Below are positions 1,511 to 32,428 of a stretch of DNA of 46,453 nucleotides, in pieces. Under the pieces are notes generated by a model. It was not told the DNA's origin and did no database searches. It saw nothing but the letters and a program-made list of their open reading frames with translations. Each line of letters begins with the position of its first letter. Positions within the stretch are counted from its first letter, which is position 1. The stretch lies in the UHGV virus genome UHGV-1365003, one strand, 5' to 3'. A program made the position numbers and the translations under genes. Source of the stretch: a virus.

Positions 1511-3840
1511 ATCTCAACCTCATCATTTGTTAATTTGTAAATTATTACGTTGTGAGATGTTCTTTTTGCATTTTCATCAATGCAAATAATACCATCTGAT
1601 AACAACTTCTCTACGCACCTCTCGACATCAGCACGTTTATAACCACCTTCTTTTGCCACCCCTCTAACCATTGCTGTTTTGGTCATTCCTCTCTTCACAT
1701 ATTCTTTAACCATGGAGAAAATACCTTCAATTCGTTCTTCCATAGCTTTAGACTTCGCTCCGGCGATACTGTCAGCACGCATCATCAGATCGCTTGTTGA
1801 TTTAATTGTTAATGCTACCGCATATCTCAAGTGCTCCATGGTTATGACGCCAGTATCGCACGCGAGAATTCCAGCAATCTTTGCCACCTTCACAGCGCAT
1901 CTGTTTATCAATGGGTGATAACCAGTACCATTTTCTACATGCTTTCTTGCCACGGTTTTAATCCATGAGAAGAACTCCTTAGCGAGTTGAGAAACTTCAG
2001 GCGTAGCTTTTATAATCCGTCTTTCTTTTTGACTGATTATTGAGTCTGTCCAGTTTTTGTGCCCAGCCGTTCCGCCATTTATTATTGTTTTTATGGTCAG
2101 TTGCATATCCATAGGTAGATCACAGTAGTTTACGCTTTCGTTTTCATCAGCAATCTCCTGTAACTCCTGCATAATCATTGCGCGCCCCATAAGACCTGAC
2201 TTAATGTTCTCTTCAGTGATAAGGCGCTTAAACTGATCATCAGTAGACACACCAAAGATTGAAAAAAATGGATTCCTTATAGCTCCATCAATTCTGTTTA
2301 TCACATCATCAAACTGACACTTAATGTCAACGGGGTCTGCCTGTATCTCATTTTCCTCAATAGCCATCAACAGCATAGCCTTTCTCTTTTCGAAAGACTT
2401 AATGAAATCCTCAGTAACCCGCTGGTCACAATAAAGAACTTCTGACGTGTAAGCCTCCATGATCGCACCAGCGGTTGCCATGTTGTACTCGCTTACTTTC
2501 TGACCAACAACACTACCAAGTTTTATCCCAATTTCATCCATGATGATATTAAACATCTGGTTAGCGCAAAGACCTTCATATATCGCACGCTCTGAGCGTA
2601 TCTTACCGGCAACTGTCTTACTCAATCCTGAGCAATCAATTATCTTTTGTAGCGCAGCAAGAACATCACCCTTACCAGAACCTGAACCAGCTATACCAAC
2701 AGCAAACAGGTTTGGTAAGGCTTTCCTGTTTGTAAGGTAAATATCAGATGACGCTCCGCAAATCATGGATGCGGCATGCAATGCGGCAAGTGCTGCAATG
2801 TTCTCTCGCTTCTCTGCACAGTTCTTATTAATCCACGCCGTAAGGCGACCAACAAATCCAGGAGGATAACGGACATCAACACTTTTGTACTCTACAGGGC
2901 ATTCACCAACACCCATTGCCATCTCTCGCTCGAAAGACTCAAGTTTCTCAATTTCCTCTGGAGTAGCCTCAAAAGTTACTTTCCTTACCCACCCTCCCTC
3001 TTGCGCGAGATAAACCAGCGTTGCTTCGGTTATCTTTTCGCTAACACCGTCCTTTCCAAAGGAATGCCATTTTGCGTCCATTTCTTCAGCTCTGTACTTG
3101 CTGAACTGCGATGACCACCTATCCCAAAGCTCAAAACCATTGCCTTCTGTAGCTTCGTGGATAGCCATACCCACATGAAGCCATGGGTCATACTCATCAC
3201 CATCTTTGATGTATTTGAGCATATCCTCCATTTCGGCAATGCTGTAATTTTTACTATCAAGCGTGAAAACCTCGTCTTCCGTTCTCTCAGGACGCAACAA
3301 AAGCTCAATAAGTTCAGAAGGGCATTCAGTTATCTCTGAAGGAGAGCCATGCTCAGCTTCATAAAAGTTACCTGACTTATGGAATGAGCCGCAGCCAACA
3401 ACAAAACCAGATGATTTAAAGTCAATACCCTTAAACCTTCTGTCATGAGAGCGCAGCTTTATTCCTTCAGGAAGTTTGTAATAGATGTGGCGACCACCAC
3501 CACCAGTCTTAACAGTAAAGCCAGCTTCGTCAGCAAGCTCTACGTCTAAGGCATCACAAAGCGATTCATATCCATCATTACCTCCGTTGCGTGGATCAAT
3601 ATCAACTACCAGATAACCATTCACAAGGACACCGAATGACTGCAATTGACCATATTCAGCCATATTTTCAATCTGGTCATCAGCCCATATAACTCCAAGC
3701 TGCCAGTTACTCATAACCGGATGCTTGCCGGCAGCATTGCACTCTGGATCACCGCATGTGCAATTGCGGTCGATATCCATTGCATGGATTCCAATAATAG
3801 GGAAGCCACATTTGCGGTAATCTTCATAACCAATCATCAT
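1507..3840 (-). CDS. bifunctional DNA primase-polymerase (PrimPol N-terminal domain) / P-loop helicase (D5/P4-alpha-like) replication protein
   Basis: 777-aa ORF. N-terminus has a Cys/His cluster (CTCGDPEC) and a PrimPol-like region (VVDIDPRNGG). Central Walker A GIAGSGSGKGDV. Large C-terminal helicase-like domain. Adjacent to an iteron/AT-rich region. Confidence 0.8.
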   Translation of the reverse strand: MMIGYEDYRKCGFPIIGIHAMDIDRNCTCGDPECNAAGKHPVMSNWQLGVIWADDQIENMAEYGQLQSFGVLVNGYLVVDIDPRNGGNDGYESLCDALDVELADEAGFTVKTGGGGRHIYYKLPEGIKLRSHDRRFKGIDFKSSGFVVGCGSFHKSGNFYEAEHGSPSEITECPSELIELLLRPERTEDEVFTLDSKNYSIAEMEDMLKYIKDGDEYDPWLHVGMAIHEATEGNGFELWDRWSSQFSKYRAEEMDAKWHSFGKDGVSEKITEATLVYLAQEGGWVRKVTFEATPEEIEKLESFEREMAMGVGECPVEYKSVDVRYPPGFVGRLTAWINKNCAEKRENIAALAALHAASMICGASSDIYLTNRKALPNLFAVGIAGSGSGKGDVLAALQKIIDCSGLSKTVAGKIRSERAIYEGLCANQMFNIIMDEIGIKLGSVVGQKVSEYNMATAGAIMEAYTSEVLYCDQRVTEDFIKSFEKRKAMLLMAIEENEIQADPVDIKCQFDDVINRIDGAIRNPFFSIFGVSTDDQFKRLITEENIKSGLMGRAMIMQELQEIADENESVNYCDLPMDMQLTIKTIINGGTAGHKNWTDSIISQKERRIIKATPEVSQLAKEFFSWIKTVARKHVENGTGYHPLINRCAVKVAKIAGILACDTGVITMEHLRYAVALTIKSTSDLMMRADSIAGAKSKAMEERIEGIFSMVKEYVKRGMTKTAMVRGVAKEGGYKRADVERCVEKLLSDGIICIDENAKRTSHNVIIYKLTNDEVEI

Positions 3841-9921: not shown

Positions 9922-9951
9922 AAATAAAGCCCTCAATCGAGGGCTTAAAGC
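9921..9951. terminator. bidirectional hairpin terminator AAGCCCTC-aatc-GAGGGCTT
   Basis: Perfect 8-bp GC stem. T-tract on the minus-strand side. Lies between convergent terL and small minus-strand genes. Confidence 0.55.
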
Positions 9952-10463: not shown

Positions 10464-10670
10464 ATGCGCAGTTATGCAGGATTTACACAGGAGGAAAAAG
10501 AGCAGGTTTATTCCCTGGCGCGGGCTGGTGTGCCTGATGAGGTGATTTGCCGTCGGTATGATATTGACGAGGATTTCCTGCTGCGCGTTATTGATGATGT
10601 TTTCGTTAACCTGCAAGAGAAGCGCGGGTACAAGGGCATTTGCTGCAAGAATGATTTTTTGAGAGGGTGA
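10464..10670 (+). CDS. hypothetical protein (68 aa)
   Basis: ORF MRSYAGFTQEEKEQVYSLARAGVPDEVICRRYDIDEDF. Possible small HTH-like. Confidence 0.45.
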   Translation: MRSYAGFTQEEKEQVYSLARAGVPDEVICRRYDIDEDFLLRVIDDVFVNLQEKRGYKGICCKNDFLRG

Positions 10671-10673
10671 GTG

Positions 10674-10877
10674 ATGACAAGAAAAGAGGTTCACGAGATG
10701 GCTGTTGAACTTAGAAAAAGATTTGAGAACATCTGGTTTGATAACCGTCATGAATTCAATGATAAGCAGTATGAGATTTACGCAAAATGCAGAGGGCTTG
10801 TTATTGGAGATAGAATGGAAAATGCTGTATTCCATCACACTAACGCCACGATGCACAGGCGAGCCTTCGACTACTGA
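10674..10877 (+). CDS. hypothetical protein (67 aa)
   Basis: AGAGGGTGA RBS. ATG 4 nt after the upstream stop. Confidence 0.45.
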   Translation: MTRKEVHEMAVELRKRFENIWFDNRHEFNDKQYEIYAKCRGLVIGDRMENAVFHHTNATMHRRAFDY

Positions 10878-10920: not shown

Positions 10921-13267
<2,347 letters not shown>

Positions 13268-13350
13268 GGGCTTTGTTTCATCTTATCAGCATGCAAAGAA
13301 CAAATATTATTATCGCATAGCACAATATTTCTAAGACGCTGAATATTGTT

Positions 13351-14796: not shown

Positions 14797-14829
14797 AGAT
14801 ACTATGCACCACCGCTCAATCTACGTCAA
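14797..14829 (-). promoter_or_regulatory. promoter with GTTGACGTAGATTGAG element (-10 CATAGT/TAGTAT) for minus-strand island A
   Basis: Minus strand reads gtGTTGACGTAGATTGAGcggtggtgCATAGTATCTACATC. The 16-mer is identical to the one at ~26830. Confidence 0.45.
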
Positions 14830-14872
14830 CACCATTGTGATAGAATTAATCATTATTTGAACAGGAGGCATA

Positions 14873-15151
14873 ATGAAACTATCGCAACGCGGCATGGAGA
14901 CGCTTGGAATCACCGATGCCGTGGATATATCGCCTTACATCACCACTGACACAACGCAGAATCAGTTCGACGCGCTGACAAGCCTTGCCACCGACATCGG
15001 CATTGACGTATTCCGTAAATCAACACTTCTGAAGAAACACAACCTGCGCTGCTTCTCATGTGCTGTTGCGCATTTCATCGTGTGGGGTGAGAAGACTGAC
15101 GACAAAGCTAAGCGCAAAACTGAAAAAGAGGTTTACTGGTATGGCTATTAG
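14873..15151 (+). CDS. GH24 (T4/P22/P21-type) lysozyme-like protein with internal deletion of the catalytic region (probable remnant)
   Basis: AGGAGG RBS. N-terminus MKLSQRGMETL resembles the P22 gp19 N-terminus. C-terminal half ISPYITTDTTQNQFDALTSLATDIGIDVFRKSTLLKK matches the conserved GH24 C-terminal half (NQYDAL..FNIG..F..STLLR). About 45 aa containing the catalytic Asp/Thr region are missing. Confidence 0.6.
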   Translation: MKLSQRGMETLGITDAVDISPYITTDTTQNQFDALTSLATDIGIDVFRKSTLLKKHNLRCFSCAVAHFIVWGEKTDDKAKRKTEKEVYWYGY

Positions 15152-16447: not shown

Positions 16448-16480
16448 AAAAAAGCCCCGTAATGGGGCTTGTGTTTAATT
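16448..16480. terminator. bidirectional hairpin terminator AAGCCCCgtaatGGGGCTT
   Basis: Lies between the convergent lysis cassette (+) and minus-strand island B. A-tract upstream and T-rich downstream. Confidence 0.65.
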
Positions 16481-23685: not shown

Positions 23686-23716
23686 TAAAAAAGGGGGTTT
23701 ATCCCCCTTCTTTGTA
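23686..23716. terminator. bidirectional hairpin terminator AAGGGGGtttatCCCCCTT
   Basis: Perfect stem with A-tract upstream and T-rich downstream. Separates the capsid gene (+) from the HNH-like gene (-). Confidence 0.7.
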
Positions 23717-24791: not shown

Positions 24792-24821
24792 TAAAACCCG
24801 CATTATGCGGGTTTTTTATTG
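24792..24821. terminator. bidirectional hairpin terminator AAACCCGCattatGCGGGTTT
   Basis: Perfect stem with T6 downstream. Also ends minus-strand island C. Confidence 0.7.
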
Positions 24822-28872: not shown

Positions 28873-29243
28873 ACATGCTTGAGCTGGTTGATGCATATCT
28901 TCAGGATGCCGGATTATACGATGGCTGGACTTCGCAGTTGCAGTTCTGGAATGATACTGGAGATGGCAACGAGCAATTCATTATCCTACAATCCAACGGC
29001 GGCACGCAGGTGATGGATGGCCTCGCCGGTGATTTCTATTTCTCTCTGTACGTTGTTGGGAAGCAAGGCCAGTACAACGTTGCTGATGTTGACGCGAAGG
29101 CGCTGGAGATTATCGAATACATCAAGACACATCCGATTGATTCATGCGTTAACTACATCCAGTTGCAGGCTCCGCTCGGCAGGCCGATGCTGACGGAAGA
29201 AAAACGTCCTGTGCATGAGTTGCTTTTGCGGGTTGTGAAATGA
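28869..29243 (+). CDS. tail terminator protein (putative)
   Basis: 124 aa. Last of the connector set, directly before the tail genes. Confidence 0.4.
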   Translation: MNMLELVDAYLQDAGLYDGWTSQLQFWNDTGDGNEQFIILQSNGGTQVMDGLAGDFYFSLYVVGKQGQYNVADVDAKALEIIEYIKTHPIDSCVNYIQLQAPLGRPMLTEEKRPVHELLLRVVK

Positions 29244-29245
29244 AT

Positions 29246-29272
29246 AAAGCCGCACGAAGCGGCTTTTAATTT
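29246..29272 (+). terminator. hairpin terminator AAGCCGCacgaaGCGGCTT
   Basis: Stem followed by TTTAATTT. Confidence 0.55.
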
Positions 29273-29280
29273 GGTGGACA

Positions 29281-29357
29281 CGGACGGGTTTGAACCTTCA
29301 ATCAGCCGATTATGAGTCGGTTGCTTTAACCAATTAAGCTACGCGTCCATAAGTGCT
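29281..29357 (-). tRNA. tRNA-like gene, anticodon CAU (Met, or Ile if lysidinylated), CCA encoded
   Basis: Cloverleaf on the reverse complement. Acceptor GGACGCG/CGTGTCC (one G-U). D-arm GCTT-AATTGGTTA-AAGC. Anticodon loop CU-CAU-AA. T-loop TTCAAAC. One mismatch each in the anticodon stem (A27-C43) and T stem (A51-G63). Confidence 0.55.
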
Positions 29358-29894
29358 GGTTTAAGCATTGCCAGCGTGCTTTCTTAACACCCAGCCCCGT
29401 AACCCATACATACCCCTATATATGATTGCGATAATGCTGAATGTTAAGTGTTGTGGGGCCGGTGCTGATCTCCGACTTGCGGTTATTTCAGACTCTCACG
29501 GGCGTTTAATTGCCCCGCCGAACAGCTCTTTTCCGCAATAGCTGCAATGTCTTTCGCGCATCAGCCTGCGCATTCACCACAACGGAAAGAGCACTCAGTT
29601 GTACATGCCAGTTGTGCCACTAGGAAATGCTTTCGCAGACCGTTAAGCTCTTTGCAAGTTCTTTAATGCTCTTACCTGTTGTGTGCACATTATTAATCAC
29701 ACCGGGCCAGTGCGCCGAATTTGTTTACAAGGAATCGGAAGACCTTGCTGACTTACAGGCTATTACGCCGCCATCAGAACAACATCATCGTTTGTATTTA
29801 TCTTTGTGGTCAGTTTCTAAAAAGTCCGCAAAGTCGCTCACGGAAACTATCTGAAATACAATCTACACCACAAAATAATCACTGTCAATACCTG

Positions 29895-29903
29895 TGATAT
29901 AAT
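29895..29903 (+). promoter_or_regulatory. extended -10 promoter TGTGATATAATC upstream of the major tail protein gene
   Basis: cctgTGATATAATCacc ~37 bp before the ATG at 29940. Confidence 0.45.
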
Positions 29904-29939
29904 CACCACGTTAGCAGCTAACACAATTCGGAGATCGAA

Positions 29940-30659
29940 ATGGCTATTTGTGCAAATGATAAGGGCGTTCTTGTCGGTCGCATGACCCGACTGTTCCTTG
30001 CTGAGGGGTGCGGTGACGCAGTTCCTGATGCAGAAGACTGGAAGTATTTAGGTTCAACCACCAGCAAAGGTGTTGACTACTCTCCGCAGACTACCACGTC
30101 TGAAGCGGATACCGCTGGCGGCTTTGTTTCCACTCTCGTTACCAGCTCTGATATGACCATCAGCGCAGAGGTTGAAATCCGCAAGAATGACCCGAGCGAT
30201 GAGTTTGGCTTCCACCGTCTGGTTGAGATTTACGCCACTGAACTGAAAGCGCGTCGCCAGCCTTCCTTGTGGGTGCGCCAGGTGACTGGTGCAACTATCG
30301 TTACCGCTTACTGCAACATTACCAGCATCAGCTACGAAGGCGGCACGAACGACATCGTAACTGGCAGCCTTGAATTCAAGGTTTACGATTCTGATAGCGT
30401 TACAGTAGAAAGCCTTGAACCTCTGAAGTTCACTACTGACCTGCAATCAACTGGCAGCACAGGCAGTCCGTTAACGGTTGTTGTTGAAGGTGGCGTCTCT
30501 CCTTACACCTACGTGTGGCGCAAGAATGGCGCGGTAGTTAGTGGTGAGTCCGACGCATCGCTGGCAAGCCCGGAAGCTGGTGTAGTATACACCGTCACGG
30601 TGACTGATTCGTCTACTGACCCTGAAATTATTATCAGCATGGCTTGCACTGTATCCTGA
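29940..30659 (+). CDS. major tail protein with C-terminal Ig-like domain
   Basis: 239 aa. GGAGA RBS. C-terminal ~80 aa Ig-like segment (PLTVVVEGGVSPYTYVWRKNGAVVSG...YTVTVTD). Position before the chaperone and tape measure genes. Confidence 0.7.
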   Translation: MAICANDKGVLVGRMTRLFLAEGCGDAVPDAEDWKYLGSTTSKGVDYSPQTTTSEADTAGGFVSTLVTSSDMTISAEVEIRKNDPSDEFGFHRLVEIYATELKARRQPSLWVRQVTGATIVTAYCNITSISYEGGTNDIVTGSLEFKVYDSDSVTVESLEPLKFTTDLQSTGSTGSPLTVVVEGGVSPYTYVWRKNGAVVSGESDASLASPEAGVVYTVTVTDSSTDPEIIISMACTVS

Positions 30660-30663
30660 TAAA

Positions 30664-30694
30664 GAAAAAGCCCCGAAAGGGGCTTTGTTTTATT
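30664..30694. terminator. bidirectional hairpin terminator AAAGCCCCgaaaGGGGCTTT
   Basis: Perfect stem with T-tract. Lies between the major tail gene (+) and the moron (-). Confidence 0.7.
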
Positions 30695-30890
30695 CTTGTG
30701 GCGGTTCTGGTAGTGGCATCCAGTGAGTCACGTACTTACCATAGTGATTCCAGAATGGCTTTCTCCCGTCATCAGGAACGATGTAATAATCATGCTGAAC
30801 TGCGTTATTCAACGTTTCATACACCAGGAACTCCTTATCCGTACACCCATCACCAGGAAGCATCTCACCACACTTAATCCACTGGATCAT
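30690..30890 (-). CDS. DUF551-family phage protein
   Basis: MIQWIKCGEMLPGDG...EFLVYE matches the DUF551 N-terminal signature (W-I-x-V/C-x-D/E-x-LP). Confidence 0.55.
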   Translation of the reverse strand: MIQWIKCGEMLPGDGCTDKEFLVYETLNNAVQHDYYIVPDDGRKPFWNHYGKYVTHWMPLPEPPQE

Positions 30891-31270
30891 AATTTATCCT
30901 CATTCATTTTCAGGAAGACAATCATGGCGGCGCGGAGTGGGTTTTCATGCTGGCAAATAAACACATCATCACCACGGAACATCATTACTGCACTATTTGT
31001 TGCCAACGGGCAATCTTGGCCATTGTTTTGAATGACGTCAATTTCATACTTAACAATAATGGGCCATGCGTCATCTGGGTTGTTGCAGTAGTCATGCAGT
31101 CCGTTCTTCGTGTAGCCAACAATACCTATCTCCCACTCCCCGCCACGAACTTTGTCTTTCCATGTTATTTTTCCTTCTCCGTGAAATGTTAATTCATATG
31201 GCTTATCTAGCAACGCATTGTGAACGGCGCTGTTAATCTCAAAGTCACTCATATCTTCATAATTTTTCAT
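30887..31270 (-). CDS. DUF2591-like phage protein (tentative)
   Basis: 127 aa. DFEINSAVHNALL... pattern resembles DUF2591. ATGA-coupled on both sides. Confidence 0.4.
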   Translation of the reverse strand: MKNYEDMSDFEINSAVHNALLDKPYELTFHGEGKITWKDKVRGGEWEIGIVGYTKNGLHDYCNNPDDAWPIIVKYEIDVIQNNGQDCPLATNSAVMMFRGDDVFICQHENPLRAAMIVFLKMNEDKL

Positions 31271-31410
31271 GTCACCTTATCCTCATCAAAAATCACACCA
31301 ATAACGCGAAGCAAGTCTTTAGCCATGCGTTCCGCCTCTTCATAGTCGTAACCTGCATCGACATACAAATCAGTGTAGAAAATCAGGTCTGCTTTTGTTT
31401 GTTCGTTCAT
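31267..31410 (-). CDS. hypothetical acidic micro-protein (47 aa)
   Basis: ORF MNEQTKADLIFYTDLYVDAGYDYEEAERMAKDLLRVIGVIFDEDKVT. ATGA overlaps with both neighbours. Confidence 0.4.
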   Translation of the reverse strand: MNEQTKADLIFYTDLYVDAGYDYEEAERMAKDLLRVIGVIFDEDKVT

Positions 31411-31601
31411 TTCTTATCGTTGCTCTTAACTAATGCCCAGACAAGTGCCGCAACCCAGCCAATAAAACTCCATCCTACAAGAATATTCAGCACACAGATT
31501 GCTGTCGTGTTTGTGTGCTTTCTTTGCAATGCCACAAATGATGGGAGAAGATAAGCAAATACAACCAACCCAGCGAAAAGCAACAAAATAACAACATCCA
31601 T
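31407..31601 (-). CDS. superinfection immunity family membrane protein (Imm_superinfect-like)
   Basis: 64 aa with two TM helices. Motif ALQRKHTNTTAICVLNILVGWSFIGWVAALVWAL matches the family signature (RKHPN...LN.L.GWT.IGW..AL.WA). Confidence 0.6.
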   Translation of the reverse strand: MDVVILLLFAGLVVFAYLLPSFVALQRKHTNTTAICVLNILVGWSFIGWVAALVWALVKSNDKK

Positions 31602-31636
31602 AACTCACCTCAGTCATATCTCGTTTCGATGACTTG

Positions 31637-31665
31637 AATCTACATCACCACCTCGCAGGTGTCAA
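31637..31665 (-). promoter_or_regulatory. strong sigma70 promoter TTGACA-N17-TAGATT driving the moron operon
   Basis: Minus strand reads gtgTTGACAcctgcgaggtggtgatgTAGATTcaag. Consensus -35 with exact 17-bp spacing. Confidence 0.65.
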
Positions 31666-31676
31666 CACCACTGAGA

Positions 31677-31685
31677 TGATATAAT
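31677..31685 (+). promoter_or_regulatory. extended -10 promoter TGATATAATC upstream of the tail assembly chaperone/tape measure operon
   Basis: gagaTGATATAATCaac ~20 bp before the ATG at 31706. Back-to-back with the moron promoter. Confidence 0.45.
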
Positions 31686-31705
31686 CAACATCAGTCAAAT
31701 TTAGG

Positions 31706-32428
31706 ATGCAAAACATGAGCAATCGCACGCCACTAACAGAAATCGGAGAGATGTGCATCTCGCTTTCTGACAGGAGTTTTTTCTTCAAACCATCATTCCG
31801 CGCCATGAATGAAATCGGCACACCGAAAGAAATTGTGGAAGTGTACGCCAGACTCAATGGCATTGATTATGTTGCGCCATTGCAGCACGTGGAATACCTG
31901 CCATTTGGCGCGCAGATGCAGGTTATGAAGACTATCAGCAAGCCAGTCTATGGTCGCCATGTGCTGAGTGCGGCCTATATTGTCATGCAGTCATGCTGTG
32001 AAGAAGATGTTTCCGTGCTGATTGGTGGTTGGAAACCAACACCGCGCGGCGTGCGATACGTGCCTGGCATCATGCCAGTGAACGACATTATTATAATTGC
32101 GCGTAACCTTATGCAACACGGCATCATTGGCAAGTCACCACTCAAAGTACCTGAACGACTGGAAGAGCAGGGCAAGAAAACCACAAACGAGTTTCATGCG
32201 TCTCAATACATCATCTCGGCACGCACGCATTTCGACATGTCGCGCGATGAGGCTGAAAACCTGTCCATGACAGAGTTTCAGATGATGATTAAGAATAAAT
32301 ATCCAGAGCCGAAAGGTCTGACAAAAGAAGAGCGCGCGGCAGAGTACGATCAGGCTAAAGCAGACCGAGAGCGCATGAAGGCACTGGCTGAACGCAAAGC
32401 GAAAAAGCGAGGAATACATAATGGCTGA
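31706..32428 (+). CDS. tail assembly chaperone (by position; possible G/GT fusion)
   Basis: 240 aa. Lies between the major tail and tape measure genes. K/E-rich C-terminus. Confidence 0.45.
   Translation: MQNMSNRTPLTEIGEMCISLSDRSFFFKPSFRAMNEIGTPKEIVEVYARLNGIDYVAPLQHVEYLPFGAQMQVMKTISKPVYGRHVLSAAYIVMQSCCEEDVSVLIGGWKPTPRGVRYVPGIMPVNDIIIIARNLMQHGIIGKSPLKVPERLEEQGKKTTNEFHASQYIISARTHFDMSRDEAENLSMTEFQMMIKNKYPEPKGLTKEERAAEYDQAKADRERMKALAERKAKKRGIHNG

Follow-up and report, generated by a model that had tools for sequence, protein, structure and literature searches.

The virus genome UHGV-1365003, analysed here over its full length of 46,453 nucleotides (nt) and referred to below as the window, contains a cluster of four small leftward genes lodged among the rightward genes of the phage tail, the first of which encodes a 64-amino acid (aa) protein of the T4 Imm family. 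We propose that these genes probably constitute a self-contained leftward accessory operon within the rightward tail block, which provides Imm-type exclusion of later-arriving phages during lytic infection. Comparisons with related phages additionally point to the second gene, coding for a micro-protein of 47 aa, as the anchor of the locus, with the Imm gene as an optional, promoter-proximal component. The genes of the operon, its flanks and its predicted signals are the following:

29940..30659, plus strand: major tail (tube) protein gene, left flank (phrog_853 major tail protein, expectation value (E) 4.7e-85; 92-97% identity in relatives)
30667..30686, both strands: predicted bidirectional intrinsic terminator, stem AAAGCCCC-GAAA-GGGGCTTT with T-runs on each strand
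30690..30890, minus strand: gene 4, DUF551 protein of 66 aa, acidic with an isoelectric point (pI) of 4.9 (PF04448, E 2.6e-11)
30887..31270, minus strand: gene 3, NinX (formerly DUF2591) protein of 127 aa, acidic, pI 4.7 (PF10765, E 4.7e-14; phrog_444, E 2.4e-33)
31267..31410, minus strand: gene 2, micro-protein of 47 aa, acidic, pI 4.1 (phrog_17424, E 6e-36; no Pfam match)
31407..31601, minus strand: gene 1, T4-Imm-family protein of 64 aa with two predicted transmembrane segments (PF14373, E 2.8e-18, 66 bits)
31605..31611, minus strand: Shine-Dalgarno sequence GAGGTGA of the Imm gene, read from the sequence
31637..31665, minus strand: predicted sigma-70-type promoter TTGACA-N17-TAGATT (-35 at 31665-31660, -10 at 31642-31637)
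31677..31685, plus strand: predicted extended -10 promoter TGATATAAT without a recognisable -35, 30 nt upstream of the DUF6246 start at 31715
31715..32428, plus strand: DUF6246 protein gene, right flank (PF19759, E 2.6e-73), after which the tape measure gene follows

An earlier note on this DNA had described four minus-strand genes with ATGA-type coupling; the open reading frames (ORFs) were confirmed with all coordinates correct, and each of the three junctions in the operon is a 4-nt overlap reading ATGA. Good Shine-Dalgarno sites precede the Imm gene (GAGGTGA) as well as the NinX and DUF551 genes (GAGGATAAGGTGA, GAGGATAAA), while the 47-aa gene has none of its own and must therefore depend on the ATGA coupling. 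The family assignments proposed for the operon also hold, with all three profiles scoring above their cut-offs. The 127-aa and 66-aa proteins match NinX (53.1 bits, cut-off 22.6) and DUF551 (44.7 bits, cut-off 22) over their full length, and the 64-aa protein passes the search by which the Imm_superinfect assignment was to be judged, aligning with positions 2-42 of the 42 in the profile against a cut-off of 27.9 bits. The latter protein also falls into phrog_1039, labelled 'immunity to superinfection' (E 1.5e-23), and in a BLASTP comparison with T4 Imm (from NC_000866), which is itself a PF14373 member at 58 bits, it shows 32% identity over 62 aa (E 4e-12). Both proteins have the YxxP and WSxIGW motifs in common and are predicted to be laid out alike, with Kyte-Doolittle hydrophobic segments at residues 1-26 and 32-58 of the 64-aa protein separated by a short basic loop, QRKHTNT. 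According to the T4 RefSeq note T4 Imm leaves the superinfecting DNA in the periplasm, and in a review Imm is credited with preventing the injection of DNA (PMC11436027). By homology, our best functional guess for the 64-aa protein is exclusion at the inner membrane while the phage grows lytically.

The signals around the operon were assessed both in the window and in related phages. For the latter we fetched 52 loci from IMG/VR with the DUF6246 protein as query and located the tail tube and DUF6246 genes in each; 38 loci with an insert between these genes, the window included, were used for counting genes by clustering of their minus-strand ORFs. The minus-strand promoter, which had been called perfect, indeed has a consensus -35 and spacing, but its -10 (TAGATT) agrees with TATAAT at only 4/6 positions. 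The exact string TTGACA-N17-TAGATT occurs twice in the window against an expectation of 0.02, and matches drop to the chance level once two mismatches are permitted. At the other end of the operon, the core of the hairpin (GCCCC-GAAA-GGGGC) folds with -17.4 and -14.0 kcal/mol on the two strands (z -4.55 and -3.89), and its stem is kept in close relatives, in keeping with the bidirectional terminator claimed for this position. The -10 of the minus-strand promoter is identical in 38/38 related loci and its -35 in 37/38 (TTGACT in the other), and the plus-strand TGATATAAT, which in the window lies 11 nt from the minus-strand -35 hexamer, is likewise identical in 37/38 (TGTTATAAT in the other). 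Over the same 38 loci the 17-nt spacer of the minus-strand promoter comes in 15 variants and the segment between the promoters in 9, with a length of 11, 3 or 0 nt. In a second phage group, where the identity of the 47-aa protein drops to 50%, TTGACG-N18-TAGATT is retained right beside TGGTATAAT. We take this as a good phylogenetic footprint for two divergent promoters and a terminator, all of predicted activity, and it bears out the view of the cluster as a unit with a promoter and terminator of its own, both conserved in relatives. The earlier note had further suggested that the two promoters share a -35 back to back in a manner implying coordinated or antagonistic regulation; because the distance between them varies (11, 3, 0 nt), a mechanism requiring a fixed shared -35 is argued against. 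The two polymerase footprints would overlap in every case, and promoter competition is therefore plausible. The terms 'late' for the plus-strand promoter and 'early' for the minus-strand promoter are reasonable guesses.

In the mechanism we favour, the host sigma-70 polymerase would initiate at the minus-strand promoter near position 31630, approximately 29 nt before the Imm ATG, and produce a tetracistronic mRNA of about 950 nt ending at the bidirectional hairpin, as the conserved signals suggest. Ribosomes would load at the strong GAGGTGA of the Imm gene and reach the next three genes by ATGA stop-start coupling. The Imm-family product would then prevent phages that arrive later from getting their DNA across the inner membrane, in the manner of T4 Imm in lytic infection, with the 47-aa, NinX and DUF551 products made alongside as three small, acidic, cytoplasmic proteins. 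As the terminator would also stop rightward transcription arriving from the tail tube gene, we propose that the -35-less TGATATAAT promoter restarts transcription of the downstream tail genes.

The comparison with relatives lacking the insert, which had been suggested as a check, was informative: in 13 distant relatives, whose DUF6246 proteins are 38-47% identical to that of the window, the tail tube and DUF6246 genes are separated by a mere 40-51 bp, with a GC-rich hairpin without a T-run in the short gap, as against 1055 bp in the window. An insert of 672-1379 bp is present in 37/37 close relatives, and one of 1507 bp in a single intermediate relative (DUF6246 56% identical). As the flanking tail genes are adjacent in the distant relatives and all the close relatives have the insert, the cassette is a true insertion. 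While the cassette as a whole is fixed in the clade, its individual genes are patchy, following a modular layout of [93-aa gene] [signal-peptide protein of about 100 aa] [Imm] 47-aa gene [NinX] [DUF551]. Among the 38 loci the 47-aa gene is present in 37, DUF551 in 35, Imm in 30, the signal-peptide protein in 22 and NinX in 14; the order Imm, 47 aa, NinX, DUF551 is shared by seven loci, among them the window, VSt472 and ASO78B, with at least one phage (VSt472) having been fetched from two sources. The alleles of the window are 88-98% (Imm), 37-64% (NinX) and 32-94% (DUF551) identical to those of relatives, and no record spans more than 67% of the cassette DNA; the alleles of the window form a new combination. 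The intermediate relative (locus L038, approximately 2860-3600, minus strand) has an Imm gene, a homologue of the 47-aa gene at 38% identity and a N6/N4 DNA methyltransferase gene, from which it follows that the downstream cargo slot can hold an anti-restriction function. At the same locus the second phage group has the 47-aa gene (50% identical), NinX and DUF7740, without Imm. Thus, we view the locus as an old cargo hot spot of this lineage, in which Imm, the signal-peptide protein, NinX, DUF551 and the DNA methylase have been swapped around the 47-aa gene.

Given that the 47-aa gene is present in 37/38 loci and Imm in only 30/38, the micro-protein is the anchor and constant core of the cassette in terms of gene content. 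The superinfection exclusion proposed in the earlier note survives as the best functional guess, but the Imm gene does not qualify as the core of the locus. In close relatives the 47-aa protein is 91-100% identical, and variable sites are distributed over the three codon positions as 8/9/29 in its gene and as 23/12/52 in the Imm gene; this concentration of variation at third positions indicates that both are real coding genes under purifying selection. An exhaustive HMMER profile search recovered 7 cluster representatives of the 47-aa family in 1.8 billion proteins, all of them in this phage lineage. The family has a conserved core DLxFYTDLYVDxGYxxEEAExxAK, and its gene always lies directly behind an envelope protein gene or the promoter (loci L005-L038, L058-L061). 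The DNA of the DUF551 allele of the window (30695-30883) is 88-91% identical to genes of 590B, NTEC3, SE-W109 and Bas73, which are E. coli and Salmonella phages of about 42-45 kb outside the Skatevirus group to which the window belongs (Bas73 is a Kagunavirus), and most Skatevirus relatives have DUF551 proteins only 32-46% identical to it. As this allele is closest to phages outside the group, gene exchange between virulent phage groups is indicated.

Further information on the contribution of these genes comes from the seszw clones, which stem from a genome-reduction study based on clustered regularly interspaced short palindromic repeats (CRISPR) (PMC9825161) and are represented by about 70 deposited genomes (records MZ3752xx/MZ3753xx and OL9647xx; loci L062, L063). 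Their cassette has the order signal-peptide gene, 47-aa gene, DUF551. In the 70 seszw-derived records, which have no host entry, the DUF551 homologue is kept in 63/70 and missing in about 7, and in the 36.5-kb clone seszw_290L gene 29 (the DUF551 gene) is cleanly deleted with the 47-aa and signal-peptide genes still in place. As the homologue has been deleted in viable clones, DUF551 is dispensable in the laboratory.

Several points weigh against the explanation proposed for the operon. T4 is a myovirus with a different injection apparatus, and carrying the Imm mechanism over to a siphovirus is an assumption; moreover, we know of no molecular target established for Imm, even in T4. Imm is missing from 8/38 related cassettes, which means that the locus cannot be conserved for the sake of exclusion by Imm; seszw and Vi II-E1 are examples of relatives without Imm. 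In 70/70 seszw clones both the first gene and the 47-aa gene are kept despite growth without competitor phages, a hint that they contribute to ordinary infection or that deletions affect the adjacent tail promoter in cis. The GC content of the cassette (42.5%) is below that of the flanking tail genes (49-52%), in favour of accessory DNA, but is also near the genome mean (45.5%). Finally, the literature searched describes no transcription programme for this phage group and provides no transcript, start-site, timing or phenotype data for it.

Some of these observations would be accommodated by a different explanation, which we consider unlikely though not negligible, namely that the Imm-family protein does not exclude rival phages but modifies the membrane for the phage's own benefit, perhaps together with the 47-aa protein. 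It could stop progeny or sister phages from wasting their genomes, tune the timing of lysis, or counter a membrane-based host defence. Consistent with this, the pairing of Imm and the 47-aa gene persists at 38% identity in the relative whose cargo is the DNA methylase, the promoter-proximal slot is always filled by an envelope protein (either Imm or the signal-peptide protein), and none of the laboratory-evolved reduced genomes had lost the first gene or the 47-aa gene. The two-transmembrane region of the Imm protein also gave a weak match, the sole PADLOC hit, to 2TM-TIR, a candidate bacterial defence protein (E 0.007), which hints that the Imm membrane module may have been reused in host defence systems. 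However, T4 Imm, the sole experimentally characterised member of the family, is an exclusion factor, Imm and the 47-aa protein are not known to be linked physically or functionally, and the retention in the seszw clones may equally reflect the cis effects mentioned above or incomplete targeting. We continue to prefer exclusion of other phages as the role of the Imm-family protein.

The setting in which such exclusion would operate is indicated by the affinities of the window phage, a Skatevirus-group siphovirus of the lineage of Salmonella phage Vi II-E1, whose closest relatives (Sf11, ST1UNAM, Sa179lw, VSt472 and IME207) show approximately 90-92% identity over 70-75% of 24 kb. Its large non-structural ORFs code for a primase, a helicase, a single-stranded DNA-binding protein, a Sak4-like annealase, RusA, a ParB-like protein and endonuclease VII; neither these ORFs nor those of the fully annotated relative VSt472 included an integrase or repressor. 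Related phages have been reported to be strictly lytic (PMC12001532), and the 37 close relatives are without exception phage genomes, about 45-48 kb in size. The cassette is absent from the E. coli chromosomes of 5,426 complete genomes, in which the sole matches were pieces of 34-37 bp from NinX genes. The window phage is thus a virulent, Skatevirus-like phage without lysogeny genes. These findings bear on the lysogenic-conversion function that the earlier note had entertained, in which the cassette would be a moron expressed from a repressed prophage to protect the lysogen. The layout of a moron is present, in that the unit has a separate predicted promoter and terminator and is inserted between genes that elsewhere are neighbours, and the product of the founding moron, gp15 of HK97, likewise is a small exclusion protein of the inner membrane whose gene belongs to a tail operon (PMC3594210). 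Nevertheless, with neither integrase nor repressor among the large non-structural ORFs, with strictly lytic relatives and with no cassette in the E. coli chromosomes searched, such a role is untenable, and we regard this explanation as scarcely credible. The description of the site as the classic moron position is imprecise, since in HK97 the moron, gene 15, is found one gene beyond, with the chaperone gene on one side and the tape measure gene on the other (PMC3594210). As for the flanks named in that description, the major tail protein gene is identified on the left, but the tail-assembly chaperone on the right is a label by position alone: the DUF6246 protein sits where the chaperone would be expected, neither Pfam nor PHROGs gives it a named function, and no solved structure is convincingly related to it.

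The promoter arrangement at the Imm operon is not confined to this locus. The other exact TTGACA-N17-TAGATT in the window (29888-29860, minus strand) again has a plus-strand TGATATAAT at its back, in this case at 29895 ahead of the tail tube gene. Transcription from this minus-strand promoter would enter a minus-strand unit (29246-29903) comprising approximately 500 nt without any ORF of at least 30 aa, a tRNA-Met (29348-29272) and a terminator (29266-29246); in relatives the interior of this unit is mosaic, with other tRNAs (Arg+Ser, Ile), and the promoter block is 98-99% conserved. A third back-to-back module (14801-14846; CGTCAA-8 nt-TGATAGAAT) lies upstream of the lysis cassette starting at 14873, with a minus-strand promoter, TTGACG-N17-CATAGT, that heads a 127-aa gene (14768-14385) and is separated by 8 nt from the plus-strand TGATAGAAT. 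As far as can be predicted, this pairing of promoters is a repeated design of the genome, present in at least three copies. On the plus strand, the extended -10 site TGNTATAAT occurs four times in the window (10883, 20693, 29895, 31677), never on the other strand and never with a recognisable -35, each time no more than 45 nt ahead of an operon start (portal, capsid, tail tube and tail). Versions with one mismatch are found at 14838, before the lysis genes, and 36016, before a large tail protein gene, which suggests a separate promoter class for structural and lysis genes. An 11-nt motif, TGRYGTAGAWW, was detected 12 times in the window against 0.52 expected, in every case in an intergenic region at a switch of the coding strand. 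Its copies overlap with either hexamer (-10 or -35) of sigma-70-like promoters, in two places they form pairs at a distance of 17 nt, and one includes the -10 region of the Imm-operon promoter; three of the promoters bearing it have a transcript start region in common (TCATCGAA / TTATCGAA). The motif may be a phage-specific promoter element or the site of a regulator. Its copies and the further predicted terminators are located as follows:

4647, 4664, 10347, 10364, 10443, 14791, 14828, 17908, 17925, 26838, 29870, 31647: positions of TGRYGTAGAWW
294-315, 9927-9946, 13252-13274, 16452-16470, 23687-23713, 24793-24815: further strong hairpin terminators, most bidirectional, of the form AAAGCCC...GGGCTTT, at strand switches

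From this layout, the genome appears to be divided into many short convergent and divergent transcription units, and the Imm operon to be one of several reverse-facing accessory units with a promoter of their own that are scattered through the structural genes.

The same motif raises the question of whether the hexamers are mainly sites for a phage regulator or a modified polymerase, in which case the cassette would be under phage-programmed control rather than independently expressed. The hexamers do fall within TGRYGTAGAWW, which at its strand-switch positions covers the -10 in the Imm operon and the -35 in other copies; the variation seen in relatives remains within the degeneracy of the motif, and the common transcribed start of the three promoters points in the same direction. 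We nevertheless find this very unlikely, as the promoter has an invariant full TTGACA at exactly the 17 nt that sigma-70 requires, no phage RNA polymerase or sigma factor was found among the ORFs scanned, and the motif may merely reflect promoters copied from one another. Initiation by the host sigma-70 polymerase is accordingly retained in the scheme proposed above as the probable route.

A bolder and in our estimate rather unlikely extension of these observations is that the genome uses two promoter classes, with the back-to-back pair as a reusable insertion adaptor combined with a timing switch, and, as a separate point, that the 47-aa protein instead of Imm is the functional core. The first class (-35 plus -10, with TGRYGTAGAWW) heads the Imm operon, the tRNA unit, the ParB/RusA operon and units of small unassigned ORFs, and the second (TGNTAnAAT, an extended -10 without -35) is found before the plus-strand operons for portal, capsid, lysis, tail tube and tail. 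At the three or more loci where both classes are paired, the polymerases would overlap in their footprints. T4 AsiA disables recognition of the -35. If the two-class proposal is true, an AsiA-like phage factor could switch each of the paired loci from leftward accessory to rightward structural transcription. Two conserved plus-strand ORFs of 68 and 67 aa (10464-10877; phrog_13301, phrog_17303) are flanked by a sigma-70-like promoter region and the portal promoter. As candidate regulators they yielded only PHROGs without assigned function, and the first looks helix-turn-helix by eye with no supporting family match.

Additional searches at the locus were negative. A scan of 29200-31750 against Rfam gave nothing beyond the tRNA-Met and sub-threshold noise, and hence no sign of hidden RNA genes in the cassette or beside it; none of the five proteins (the four of the operon and DUF6246) matched NCBIfam; and the NinX, DUF551 and DUF6246 proteins had no significant match among solved structures. 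The plus-strand ORFs at 30644-30877 and 30723-31031 and an alternative-frame ORF at 31426-31617 were taken as spurious shadows of the minus-strand genes.

The value of an inner-membrane block to phages of this type can be rationalised from their receptor usage. Virulent phages targeting the O-antigen can hardly mask their receptor in the lytic cycle (BASEL paper, PMC11990801), and from this we infer that, with an abundant O-antigen receptor that is not readily masked, a block at the inner membrane is the obvious alternative. Skatevirus and Jerseyvirus phages are under development for biocontrol and therapy, and an exclusion factor acting in lytic growth would affect their behaviour in cocktails. 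The gene that would provide the block measures 195 bp; the never-lost 47-aa anchor gene and the back-to-back promoters of two classes would matter more if confirmed.

Relative to known systems, the cassette itself is already annotated in many GenBank records of relatives, to which the window adds a new combination of alleles. The same locus, promoter, terminator and 47-aa gene are found in the Skatevirus-group phages VSt472, ASO78B, IME207, Skate, Sf11 and ZCEC08, among others; the ASO78B record annotates both promoters and the terminator, and the ZCEC08 paper notes a reverse-strand superinfection immunity gene (PMC12001532). In the strictly lytic Salmonella siphoviruses of the Jerseyvirus group, a different genus, an Imm-annotated gene has been noted as unexplained (PMC8425127), the likeness to the window being one of annotation. 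T4 Imm and the window protein are homologous over the whole core, both belong to PF14373 and both come from virulent phages. They differ in that the window protein has 64 aa instead of 83 and lacks the C-terminal tail, comes from a siphovirus using a tailspike instead of a contractile-tailed phage, and is encoded among tail genes in a coupled four-gene operon, unlike T4 imm, which lies in the early region beside gene 42/43; a partner comparable to T4 Sp was not identified for it. By the Juhala/Hendrix definition of morons (summarised in PMC3594210), the cassette agrees in being extra DNA between otherwise adjacent genes with its own predicted promoter and terminator, and departs in that it would not be expressed from a repressed prophage for the benefit of a lysogen. 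HK97 gp15 blocks genome entry and not the receptor (Juhala et al. 2000; Cumby et al. 2012; reviewed in PMC3594210). Like the Imm gene of the window, its gene codes for a small inner-membrane protein, is located in a siphovirus tail operon at nearly the same position, and has its own promoter and terminator. In contrast, gp15 is of the YebO family and not of the Imm family, and is the product of a single gene from the prophage of a temperate phage, whereas the window phage is virulent and its four-gene unit is fixed in a whole clade. HK97 gp15 would thus be the closest functional analogue of the Imm-family protein described here, from an unrelated sequence family.

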